Positions 82-4,466 of a stretch of DNA of 4,466 bases are shown in pieces (within the stretch, counting starts at the first letter, position 1; the number at the start of each line of letters is the position of its first letter). Both the position numbers and the translations under genes were made by a program. The notes under the pieces are model-generated. The model did no database searches, had not been told where the DNA came from, and saw only the letters and a list, made by a program, of their open reading frames with translations. This stretch comes from a virus (taxonomy: Duplodnaviria > Heunggongvirae > Uroviricota > Caudoviricetes), in IMG/VR virus record IMGVR_UViG_2695420589_000009; one strand, given 5' to 3'.

Positions 82-1164
82 TTGAAAAAATTAACAGTGG
101 CAATTTCTGCTGTAGCTGCATCAGTACTGATGGCGATGTCTGCTCAGGCAGCTGAAATTTATAATAAAGACAGTAACAAGCTGGATCTGTACGGGAAAGT
201 TAATGCTAAGCACTACTTCTCCTCTAATGATGCAGATGATGGTGATACTACTTATGCCCGTCTTGGCTTCAAAGGTGAAACCCAAATCAACGATCAACTG
301 ACTGGTTTCGGTCAGTGGGAATATGAATTCAAAGGCAACCGCGCTGAATCTCAAGGTTCCTCCAAAGATAAAACCCGTCTTGCCTTCGCTGGCCTGAAAT
401 TCGGTGACTACGGCTCCATCGATTACGGCCGTAACTACGGTGTAGCATACGACATCGGTGCGTGGACTGACGTCCTGCCAGAATTCGGTGGTGACACTTG
501 GACTCAAACAGATGTGTTCATGACTGGTCGCACCACTGGTGTTGCAACTTATCGTAACAACGACTTCTTTGGTCTGGTTGATGGTCTGAACTTTGCTGCT
601 CAGTATCAGGGTAAAAATGACCGCACTGACGTAACTGAAGCTAATGGTGATGGTTTCGGTTTCTCCACTACTTATGAGTATGAAGGATTCGGTGTAGGTG
701 CAACCTATGCTAAATCTGACCGCACTAATAATCAGGTTATCTACGGTAACAACAGCCTGAATGCATCTGGTCAAAATGCTGAAGTATGGGCAGCTGGTCT
801 GAAATATGATGCGAACAACATCTATCTGGCTACCACCTATTCTGAAACCCAGAACATGACTGTTTTTGGTAATAACCATATTGCCAACAAAGCACAAAAC
901 TTCGAAGTAGTTGCACAATATCAGTTCGACTTCGGTCTGCGTCCGTCCGTTGCTTACCTGCAATCTAAAGGAAAAGACTTGGGTGCGTGGGGTGATCAGG
1001 ACCTGGTTGAATATATTGATGTAGGTGCAACCTATTACTTCAACAAAAATATGTCCACTTTTGTTGATTACAAAATCAACCTGATTGATAAGAGCGATTT
1101 CACGAAAGCATCTGGCGTTGCTACCGATGATATCGTTGCTGTAGGTATGGTTTACCAGTTCTAA
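82..1164 (+). CDS. nmpC: Outer membrane porin, OmpC/OmpF/PhoE family, prophage-encoded NmpC/Lc(OmpD)-like; start codon appears to be TTG
   Basis: 360-aa ORF with a typical signal peptide ([23 protein letters not shown], cleavage after AQA), porin motifs and the beta-barrel C-terminal ...VYQF. The sequence matches my memory of E. coli NmpC almost along its whole length. Codon 82-84 is TTG and no Shine-Dalgarno is visible within 15 nt upstream. Confidence 0.9.
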
Positions 1165-3261: not shown

Positions 3262-3353
3262 ACGGCCTCCCTAACGGAAACCGCAGAATGCAGAAAATCG
3301 CAGGTGCATTTCTGCATCTGTGACAAGGTGATGAGTTCAGATTGTGGTCGCAT
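3258..3353 (-). CDS. Small ORF (31 aa), possibly YlcH-like, translationally coupled to ybcN
   Basis: My translation: MRPQSELITLSQMQKCTCDFLHSAVSVREAV. SD AAGGGG lies 6-7 nt upstream of its ATG. Its TGA overlaps the ybcN ATG (ATGA). Too short to call confidently from sequence alone. Confidence 0.4.
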   Translation of the reverse strand: MRPQSELITLSQMQKCTCDFLHSAVSVREAV

Positions 3354-3372
3354 TTAAGTCCCCTTAAATGCG
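3349..3372 (-). promoter_or_regulatory. 10-bp-stem hairpin (CGCATTTAAG / 4-nt loop / CTTAAATGCG) enclosing the SD and start codon of the small ORF
   Basis: Perfect inverted repeat. On the - strand mRNA the loop is GGGA (part of the SD) and the AUG lies in the 3' arm of the stem. Confidence 0.35.
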
Positions 3373-3483
3373 CAGAAGTCACCGGAGTTGTTCAGGCTCC
3401 GATGAGAGGATTATGGCGGATTGATTACGATAAATCAAAACTATCTTGAAGCCAAAACAGTGATCTTCGCTTTAAAAACCTTG

Positions 3484-3489
3484 TATACT
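3484..3489 (+). promoter_or_regulatory. Candidate -10 hexamer (TATACT) for the AT-rich cassette; no convincing -35
   Basis: TATACT lies 36 nt upstream of ATG 3526, preceded by TTG. The best -35-like element (TTGAAG, 3446..3451) is too far away to pair with it. Weak call. Confidence 0.2.
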
Positions 3490-3525
3490 TTCACCTAATC
3501 ACAGCCAGAACTATGGATCTAACCA

Positions 3526-3903
3526 ATGACCAACAAAGAAAACAAAGATAAATATATTAACAAGTTCAAGAAAGAGCTTTCAAAATATATACAACCAACT
3601 GCTGGAGTGGACATTCAATTATTTAACTCTAAGGATGGTGGTGGTGTAATTAAAGCCACTTTGAATAGAAGTGGAAAAAGAAAATCATCTATTGCTGGTA
3701 ATTTTACTAAATTAGGTGAGGCAATTACCTCGAGTGGGCAGAGGGTTTTTGGTGGTGATCTATCAAATGTGAATTTTTACGGAACAAATACGATTTTTGA
3801 TGGAGATACAATATTTTTAATTAAATCACCTGATTCAGAGGAGTGGTCATCACAAAAAGCTTCCAAAGACGTAGAGGGCATCGTATTTGGAGGGAAAAAA
3901 TGA
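3526..3903 (+). CDS. Hypothetical soluble protein, 125 aa, Lys-rich N-terminus and Gly-rich beta-like middle; first gene of the AT-rich cassette
   Basis: ORF in strongly AT-rich DNA with AT-biased codon usage. Only a weak SD (GGA about 8 nt upstream). No signal peptide or TM segment. Stop overlaps the start of the next ORF (ATGA). I recognise no family. Confidence 0.7.
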   Translation: MTNKENKDKYINKFKKELSKYIQPTAGVDIQLFNSKDGGGVIKATLNRSGKRKSSIAGNFTKLGEAITSSGQRVFGGDLSNVNFYGTNTIFDGDTIFLIKSPDSEEWSSQKASKDVEGIVFGGKK

Positions 3904-4328
3904 TTAACATTACTACTAAGGATGGCACTCAAGTCAGTGGTGAAGTAAGAGATCTAGTAATTCTTCTTGAAACTGATGGAAAAACGGTGTCTGATTATTT
4001 GCAGCCAATCCCTCCCAAAAAAGATACACACTGGAGCATGATTTTCATTCCGGTAGCAATTTATATACTACTTAATCTTGTATACATTATTGCTCACCCA
4101 TTATTTCCTGAAAAATATCTAAAAACATCAACATCTATATTTCTATTCATTTCCTTCATATTAAGTGCAATAGTAGCATATTTTGTTTTCCATAAGCATA
4201 AATCTGCCACTCTATCCATATGCAGCTTAGTGTTCTTAGTGTTAATTGTAGGTGCTAACGTAGGGTTTATCAGTTACAGCGACCTAACACAAAAAGCGAC
4301 GCAAAAATTAGATAGTTTGTCTAAATAA
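3900..4328 (+). CDS. Hypothetical small membrane protein, 142 aa, soluble N-terminal ~45 aa then three predicted TM helices; second gene of the AT-rich cassette
   Basis: ATG at 3900 preceded by SD GGAGGG with 5-nt spacing. Hydrophobic segments MIFIPVAIYILLNLVYIIAHPLF, SIFLFISFILSAIVAYFVF and LSICSLVFLVLIVGANVGFISY. The GTG at 3843 in the ORF track is an in-frame upstream extension that I reject. Confidence 0.75.
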   Translation: MINITTKDGTQVSGEVRDLVILLETDGKTVSDYLQPIPPKKDTHWSMIFIPVAIYILLNLVYIIAHPLFPEKYLKTSTSIFLFISFILSAIVAYFVFHKHKSATLSICSLVFLVLIVGANVGFISYSDLTQKATQKLDSLSK

Positions 4329-4335
4329 TTATGTT

Positions 4336-4356
4336 GCCATGCGAAGTATGCATGGC
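4336..4356 (+). terminator. Stem-loop GCCATGC / GAAGTAT / GCATGGC just after the cassette stop, followed by palindrome CCATTTAAAATGG (4371..4383); weak terminator candidate
   Basis: Inverted repeats are seen directly; no clean U-tract follows. Confidence 0.2.
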
Positions 4357-4435
4357 TGCATGTCTGCCTTCCATTTAAAATGGGCTAAGACCTATAACCC
4401 TAAATATTATTCTTTATTATCTTCTTTACCACTTC

Positions 4436-4466
4436 GGTGATGCTGCCAACTTACTGATTTAGTGTA
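4436..4466 (+). mobile_element. Left end (IRL) of insertion sequence IS1, truncated by the window edge
   Basis: GGTGATGCTGCCAACTTACTGATTTAGTGTA matches the IS1 left terminal inverted repeat and the following bases as I remember them. Only 31 bp are in the window. Confidence 0.7.

Follow-up and report, generated by a model that had tools for sequence, protein, structure and literature searches.

What does a small, basic protein from no recognisable family do beside a membrane protein gene in a lambdoid prophage? We addressed this question for a 4,466-nucleotide stretch of viral DNA (the window; IMG/VR record IMGVR_UViG_2695420589_000009, Caudoviricetes), in which an open reading frame (ORF) running from ATG to TGA at 3526-3903 on the plus strand, here called orfA, encodes a soluble, basic protein of 125 amino acids that belongs to an unannotated, multi-phylum family. 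The next gene, orfB (3900-4328, plus strand), encodes a predicted inner-membrane protein of 142 amino acids, and its ATG start overlaps the orfA stop by four bases (ATGA). Our analyses reveal that orfA and orfB form an ancient, coupled and self-contained two-gene module that is co-conserved across phyla, and point, tentatively, to a role in phage exclusion.

The original prediction, made from the letters of the window, had described the orfA product as Lys-rich at its N-terminus and Gly-rich and repeat-like in its core, and had called its Shine-Dalgarno (SD) sequence weak. The ORF and all four peptides quoted there are present in the translation. The basic N-terminus is as described (seven Lys within residues 4-20, and a net charge of +4 over residues 1-25, with +6 for the whole protein), and so is the weak SD, which consists only of GGA at 3515-3517, 8 nt before the ATG. 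Gly enrichment holds but is modest, at 15 of 125 residues (12%); the repeat-like core is not borne out, as the two halves of the protein show no similarity beyond a best match of 8 residues (E=0.47). We then compared six enterobacterial variants of the cassette, in which orfA is full length, free of internal stops and 67-92% identical to the query protein, and in which the orfB frame is likewise intact. The pairwise ratio of nonsynonymous to synonymous substitution rates (dN/dS) lies between 0.05 and 0.17 over the two genes and between 0.06 and 0.17 for orfB, with synonymous sites near saturation. These results indicate that orfA and orfB are real genes under purifying selection.

We searched for the family of orfA at several depths. 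The claim that it has no recognisable family stands for Pfam, NCBIfam and PADLOC, which gave 0 matches, and for the sequences of the PDB, which gave none; but it does not stand for PHROG, where orfA matches PHROG 18061 end to end (E=9.3e-85, 1-125 of 125), a group with no assigned function, nor for the wide unannotated family described here. In the same way, orfB matches PHROG 16940 end to end (E=2.3e-96, 1-142 of 142). The two proteins are thus members of these two PHROGs, which are small families that miss the multi-phylum family and are silent on the pairing. A word-indexed homologue search reached close enterobacterial relatives only, so an exhaustive profile search was needed; HMMER run against 1.84 billion cluster representatives returned 111 relatives of orfA at E<=1e-3, 30 of them at E<=1e-10, and most of the 111 are full length, at 120-135 amino acids. 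An alignment of 82 sequences, with 20-42% identity to the query outside Enterobacteriaceae, yielded the family signature Y10, G39, F84-x-G86-T87-(N88), I99-K100, W107 and D115, and most members carry Y(I/V)NNFRR near the N-terminus. Not one of the 82 members has a Pfam family match above noise, and the literature searched by RefSeq, UniProt and PHROG identifiers mentions none of these identifiers.

Structure prediction, which had been proposed as a check, gave a confident fold. With 9 close sequences, AlphaFold2 reached an unconvincing predicted local distance difference test score (pLDDT) of 58; with the 82-sequence alignment it reached a mean pLDDT of 93.3 and a predicted template modelling (TM) score, pTM, of 0.87, all five models scoring at least 89.5. 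The model comprises a helix (4-19), three strands (27-35, 40-47 and 52-60), a second helix (63-70), a conserved long loop (71-86), two further strands (87-92 and 95-100) and helices at 104-107 and 109-124. This mixed alpha/beta arrangement of 3-4 helices and 5 strands replaces the small beta-rich fold suggested earlier. In the model the Lys-rich N-terminus is helix 1, the 'DGGGV' peptide surrounds the family-wide G39 and makes the turn that joins strand 1 to strand 2, and 'FGGDL...GTN' corresponds to the conserved loop that precedes strand 4. Foldseek comparison of the model with 350,542 PDB chains found no convincing relative (best E 0.049, TM-score 0.31), and the sole match in BFVD was to a siphovirus protein that is itself uncharacterised (E=2e-3, TMq 0.63). 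A Roadblock/LC7/MglB-like fold, guessed from the helix-strand order of the shallow model, was rejected because Foldseek gave no significant structural match to support it. On these comparisons with PDB chains and BFVD, the predicted fold of orfA is provisionally new.

The same prediction had suggested that orfA may be the partner of the downstream membrane protein, and the linkage between the two genes strongly supports this. The ribosome-binding site of orfB (GGAGGG, 3889-3894, plus strand), as read from the sequence, lies inside the last orfA codons, and the C-terminal Gly-Gly-Lys-Lys of orfA (3889-3903) is dual-coding, its codons also forming GGAGGG and the A-rich spacer of orfB. All the enterobacterial variants share residues G122, G123 and K124, and the C-terminus is not conserved family-wide; the 'GGKK' is invariant in the enterobacterial variants alone because GGA GGG AAA AAA constitutes the orfB ribosome-binding site and its spacer.

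We extended the comparison to other bacteria, searching for loci with a profile built from a 13-sequence sub-alignment of the orfA family. The search yielded 61 metagenome loci, 48 with a readable downstream ORF; this ORF matches the hidden Markov model of the B family (to which orfB belongs) in 45 of the 48 (E 1e-11 to 4e-53), and the orfA stop is overlapped by 4 or 1 bases in 34 of these 45. The pair is also kept in most genome loci, in at least seven phyla, an orfB-like gene following orfA in Deltaproteobacteria, Acidobacteriota, Verrucomicrobiota, Betaproteobacteria, another proteobacterium, Saganbacteria and two viral contigs; one locus among the representative genomes and viral contigs runs off its contig. 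Even where orfA relatives have only 32-35% identity (in a marine metagenome and a phage-like contig), they are followed, with a 4-base overlap, by a gene of 125-128 amino acids with the layout of orfB, and hhalign aligned the orfB profile with the distant partner at 77% probability (E=2e-5, 105 collinear columns). No recurrent third gene was found among 132 neighbouring proteins by all-against-all BLAST. Locus L033, a candidate for orfA without orfB, was set aside, its missing gene being a gap in the gene table only and its DNA identical to that of L034.

The partner of orfA can differ. In a Planctomycetota lineage (L025, 6382-6762; L079) the orfA homologue is followed by an unrelated protein of 126 amino acids with two transmembrane segments, and in one protein of 447 amino acids (P0104) an orfA domain (residues 7-119) is joined to an HNH endonuclease domain (191-231; Pfam E=1.3e-12) and an uncharacterised C-terminal part of about 200 amino acids, of which only the HNH part matches PADLOC nuclease-effector models. 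Both arrangements fit a view of the orfA domain as a constant sensor or adaptor with exchangeable effectors. In a betaproteobacterial metagenome-assembled genome (L026, 6001-6846), the orfA homologue is apparently frameshifted after about residue 85 and orfB carries a C-terminal extension; this copy may be decaying or may reflect an assembly error.

We next characterized orfB. Hydropathy analysis divides it into a soluble N-terminal segment (residues 1-44) and three transmembrane segments (TM1, 45-66; TM2, 79-97; TM3, 105-125), and basic residues before TM1 together with HKHK in the TM2-TM3 loop predict an N-in, C-out orientation under the positive-inside rule. The B family shares the N-terminal motif EGTPEEI(K/R)DFF..nGL...DY.E.P, present in the orfB of the window as SGEVRDLVILLETDGKTVSDYLQP, with G14 and G27 invariant, P51 in TM1, and a basic Q.RFK loop containing K101. 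Comparison with Pfam gave only generic transmembrane matches, all below gathering scores and varying between members, and comparison with the PDB gave no match. One source labels orfB a 'VIT1/CCC1 family Fe2+/Mn2+ transporter'; we rejected this label, as Pfam holds no VIT1 match at E<=1. The ORF list also contains a GTG-started version of 161 amino acids (3843-4328) that overlaps orfA, and a database cluster from Enterobacter hormaechei (P0015) is annotated at that length; the conserved start is the ATG at 3900, with its strong SD, giving 142 amino acids.

Within the window, the flank on the minus strand holds lambdoid nin and Q genes identified by Pfam (NinB-like ybcN, NinE, YbcO, RusA and Q). 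An annotated DLP12-like prophage of Escherichia coli reads portal, terminase and so on to essD rrrD, an ompC-like porin, and quuD ylcG rusA ybcO ninE ybcN, and then, beyond a pair of hypothetical proteins encoded on the other strand, P, O, a ydaT-like gene and cro/cI-like genes. These two hypothetical proteins are orfA (WP_000182282.1) and orfB (WP_000608370.1). The cassette thus has replication gene P on one side and ybcN/ninB on the other, and early-right transcription of the phage, which runs through P, nin and Q, crosses it in antisense. Its GC content is 33-36%, versus 52-59% in the neighbouring nin genes. To its left, outside the cassette, lies conserved non-coding lambdoid backbone upstream of ybcN/ninB (3278-3440, minus strand), which matches HK639, phi80, HK225 and phage 82 at 79-95% identity and marks the left boundary of the insert; to the right of about 3440, no isolated phage matches. 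An insert between backbone genes, patchily present and of deviant base composition, bears the marks of a 'moron', and we take the cassette to be one that a DLP12-like lambdoid prophage acquired by horizontal transfer.

The cassette opens with an AT-rich leader (3441-3525, plus strand; GC about 33%) that carries the weak SD and, at 3484-3489, a -10-like hexamer (TATACT) preceding the orfA ATG by 36 nt. This -10-like block is the sole upstream stretch conserved among the six diverged variants, four of the five others carrying TGATATAGTATAAT-type sequence. At the other end, 7 nt after the orfB stop, a hairpin of the form GCCATGC-N7-GCATGGC (4336-4356, plus strand) marks the 3' end of the mobile unit; all 42 cells of its stem pair across the six variants (including one compensatory GC-to-AU change and a single G-U wobble), whereas loop and flanking sequence diverge, and its folding energy is -16.6 kcal/mol (z=-2.8). 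The hairpin may be a terminator, an mRNA-stabilising stem or a recombination boundary. An Rfam scan of the window returned no family.

We investigated the distribution of the 960-bp cassette in complete genomes. Of 5,426 complete E. coli genomes, 46 carry it, always as a single chromosomal copy at 99.6% identity or more; these carriers include the uropathogenic E. coli (UPEC) strains 536 and F11. The cassette is uninterrupted in 45 of the 46; in the remaining strain, CV839-06 (L002, 6265-7415), the insertion sequence IS1A splits orfA after about 50 codons and leaves orfB intact. At least 1,000 contigs carry the exact orfA and orfB protein sequences, and Shigella sonnei is the source of many of them. 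Databases also contain many partial orfA proteins that come from S. sonnei contigs, as suits genomes rich in insertion sequences. Throughout Enterobacteriaceae the pair always occupies the same lambdoid slot, in antisense, among surrounding modules that differ (O/P, DnaB or DnaC-type replication; NinB or DUF1367; three Q types). In the viral contig L030, a distant allele from an orfA subgroup about 30% identical to the query sits in the equivalent DUF1367/Q lambdoid slot.

Outside this slot, several loci have neighbours of the kind found in defence islands. The type I genes hsdM-hsdS lie directly upstream of the pair in L027, and Fic is a neighbour in L028; elsewhere AbiTii (twice), BrxA/BrxB, AAA_15, RhuM and transposases lie near the pair, and in L023 it is found within an integrase/Rep element.

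Taken together, we tentatively favour, with confidence a little short of even, the reading that orfA-orfB is an uncharacterised two-component phage-exclusion module of the abortive-infection type, one that would work like RexAB though unrelated to it. This reading draws on architecture, context and the precedent of RexAB-type systems, from which we infer expression in lysogeny, contact between the two proteins, their separate roles and the anti-phage function itself. RexAB-type prophage systems consist of a soluble trigger and a membrane effector, and the triggered membrane protein damages the membrane and aborts infection (PMC12894663). Like these systems (those of lambda, P. putida RexABpp, Sbash gp30/31 and CarolAnn gp44/43), which are architecturally its closest known counterparts, orfA-orfB is a prophage-borne pair of adjacent genes, for a soluble protein and then a small polytopic membrane protein of about 140 amino acids, a resemblance of architecture only. 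The two also differ: RexA has 279 amino acids versus 125 for orfA, in which no DNA-binding fold was detected. RexB has four transmembrane segments, whereas orfB has three predicted ones and a conserved cytoplasmic N-domain; and RexAB lies in the immunity region beside cI, whereas orfA-orfB lies in the P-ninB slot, antisense to pR.

In the mechanism that we propose, orfA and orfB would be expressed from the prophage during lysogeny. As the cassette points against the early-right operon, it would depend on a promoter of its own in the lysogen and would be read in antisense when the prophage turns lytic. The cytoplasmic orfA protein would detect a cue of infection and act on the cytoplasmic N-domain of orfB or on its basic TM2-TM3 loop, and orfB would then compromise the inner membrane. 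Lying antisense within the pR operon, the module would be damped while its own prophage grows lytically, and such a placement suggests a simple switch for self-immunity through transcriptional interference. The assignment of orfA as sensor or regulator, as originally suggested, is one that we infer from its place in this scheme. A bolder form of the proposal, which we hold somewhat more loosely, is that the module founds a new, phylum-spanning anti-phage system, with a sensor whose fold has no PDB match, swappable effectors (the three-segment orfB type, the two-segment protein of Planctomycetota and the fused HNH nuclease) and, in enterobacterial lambdoid prophages, a place in the P-ninB slot antisense to pR that would silence it when the prophage turns lytic.

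A number of observations weigh against a phage-exclusion function. Membership of the RexAB family was rejected, with hhalign probabilities of 0.03% for the orfA profile against RexA and 0.1% for the orfB profile against RexB, and PADLOC-DB v2 gave 0 matches to anti-phage systems for the window or for distant A and B members. The module had no tblastn match in isolated phage genomes or plasmids. The leader contains no good -35 element, a consensus promoter scan made no call there, and the 3' hairpin lacks a U-tract on either strand. The likeness of some neighbourhoods to defence islands is only suggestive, being read from individual loci, and several loci lie among housekeeping genes (plsX/yceD, ValRS, accA, cobD). 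The HNH fusion, finally, is a singleton from two short Logan contigs and counts as weak support.

We also compared the module with other systems of similar build. The two-gene defence pair Kiwa (the membrane protein KwaA with KwaB) resembles it in combining a soluble and a membrane protein; Kiwa differs in gene order and protein sizes, and the PADLOC models, Kiwa included, match neither A nor B. Lambda Ren is, like the cassette, small accessory cargo between P and ninB, but it is a single gene co-oriented with P, unlike the antisense two-gene cassette, and homology to it was rejected (hhalign probability 0.2%). What is new is a soluble-plus-membrane prophage module built from two unannotated families, one of them with no fold match in the PDB. 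Candidate defence modules with no assigned function are now common. If orfA-orfB serves defence, it would enlarge the small group of RexAB-like systems by a compact (about 0.9 kb), widespread pair of a soluble and a membrane protein in which the sensor has an unrecognised fold. Whatever its function, the analysis defines two families outside Pfam coverage, a soluble domain of about 125 amino acids and its partner of about 125-145 amino acids with three transmembrane segments, both with clear signature motifs and strict linkage, for which annotation pipelines offer only 'hypothetical protein'. Because the module is present in the well-studied UPEC strains 536 and F11 and in S. sonnei, it is easily testable.

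Among the alternatives, a toxin-antitoxin or addiction module fares best, though we consider it unlikely. Here orfB would be a membrane-damaging toxin with orfA as its antitoxin; together they would keep the prophage or island stable, with any exclusion of phage a secondary effect. Type V GhoS/GhoT is a compact operon with the soluble protein first and the membrane protein second, and orfA-orfB shares this order with membrane-toxin systems of that type. The antitoxin-first arrangement, the small, mobile and tightly coupled nature of the pair, its very varied contexts and its neighbours of toxin-antitoxin or Abi type (Xre-MbcA in L010, and the Fic and AbiTii genes described above) all agree with such a module. 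However, orfB, with 142 amino acids and a conserved cytoplasmic domain of 44 residues, is far larger than typical membrane toxins, and orfA has no recognisable DNA-binding or RNase domain. The fusion of the A domain to an HNH nuclease in a protein that lacks B is more readily understood if A is a sensor or adaptor than if it serves solely as an antitoxin. The intact orfB behind the IS1A-disrupted orfA of CV839-06 also speaks, mildly, against an antitoxin, and is ambiguous because IS1 insertions are usually polar on downstream genes.

A membrane function outside defence, carried as prophage cargo (for example in signalling, envelope stress or the handling of ions or metals) and regulated by orfA from the cytoplasm, seems to us quite unlikely. 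It would account for the many loci among housekeeping genes, and both the VIT1/CCC1 label and a weak similarity of orfB to 7TMR-DISM membrane modules (E=2.6e-4, below cut-off) would suit it; yet the label finds no backing in the Pfam scan, the matches of orfB to transmembrane families all fall below gathering scores and differ by member, and so patchy an occurrence of a mobile, low-GC unit (46 of 5,426 E. coli genomes) is unlike that of a physiological housekeeping function.

Two further readings keep an anti-phage role and distribute it otherwise. In the first, which is improbable, the roles are reversed: orfA would be the antiviral or toxic effector, and orfB would tether and sequester it until infection sets it free. 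The conserved polar residues of orfA (Y10, T87, N88, K100 and D115) could form an active or binding site. The arrangement is documented for gp30/gp31 of mycobacteriophage Butters, in which a membrane protein sequesters an active soluble partner (summarised in PMC12894663). The second, for which we likewise see only a slim chance, is superinfection exclusion, in which orfB would block phage DNA entry at the inner membrane and orfA would be accessory. HK97 gp15, P22 SieA and T4 Imm block phage DNA entry, and the prophage location, an orientation that suits lysogenic expression and a small polytopic inner-membrane protein are in keeping with such a role. Nevertheless, many phyla carry the pair in non-prophage settings too, which is not the usual pattern for exclusion proteins adapted to a particular injection route, and an obligate cytoplasmic partner and a nuclease-fused relative are unexpected for an entry block. 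That orfA is a chance open frame or a dead, untranslated remnant, as its GGA-only SD might suggest, can be dismissed in view of the dN/dS values, the 111 diverged full-length relatives, the confident model (pLDDT 93) and the cassette itself, which is uninterrupted and has both ORFs annotated in 45 of the 46 E. coli carriers. Since the protein has a predicted fold, is conserved beyond this locus and shows the constraint of a translated frame, the gene stands.

The backbone stretch upstream of ybcN (3278-3440), which many lambdoid phages share, carries the annotation of a putative promoter with a 'possible regulator-binding site' in phage 82 and the label 'IR4' in phi80. Two terminator-like hairpins lie within it on the minus strand (3316-3299 and 3293-3281), and it is plausibly a tR2-type element.

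On the right, the cassette is bounded by the last codons of gene P (4407-4435, minus strand), with the P stop at 4407, coordinates that were transferred from the annotation of strain A7. The window ends in a 31-mer (4436-4466, no strand assigned), an IS1 terminal inverted repeat that equals the edge of the annotated IS1A in strain CV839-06. Since this IS1 end cuts P and leaves only its last 10 or so codons, the prophage copy in the window is probably replication-defective.

The same slot can hold other genes: in the enterobacterial prophage L003 (5665-7348) it also carries, beside the orfA-orfB cassette, a gene pair with weak Colicin and Colicin_im Pfam matches, together with DndB and HNH genes, a content suggestive of a general hotspot for cargo between P and ninB. 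A second item of prophage cargo in the window is an OmpC/NmpC-like porin gene (82-1164, plus strand; Porin_1, E=3e-153), which has Q and the lysis genes as its neighbours and runs in the direction opposite to Q; a run of 36 N at 1301-1336 separates this porin gene from the Q gene.
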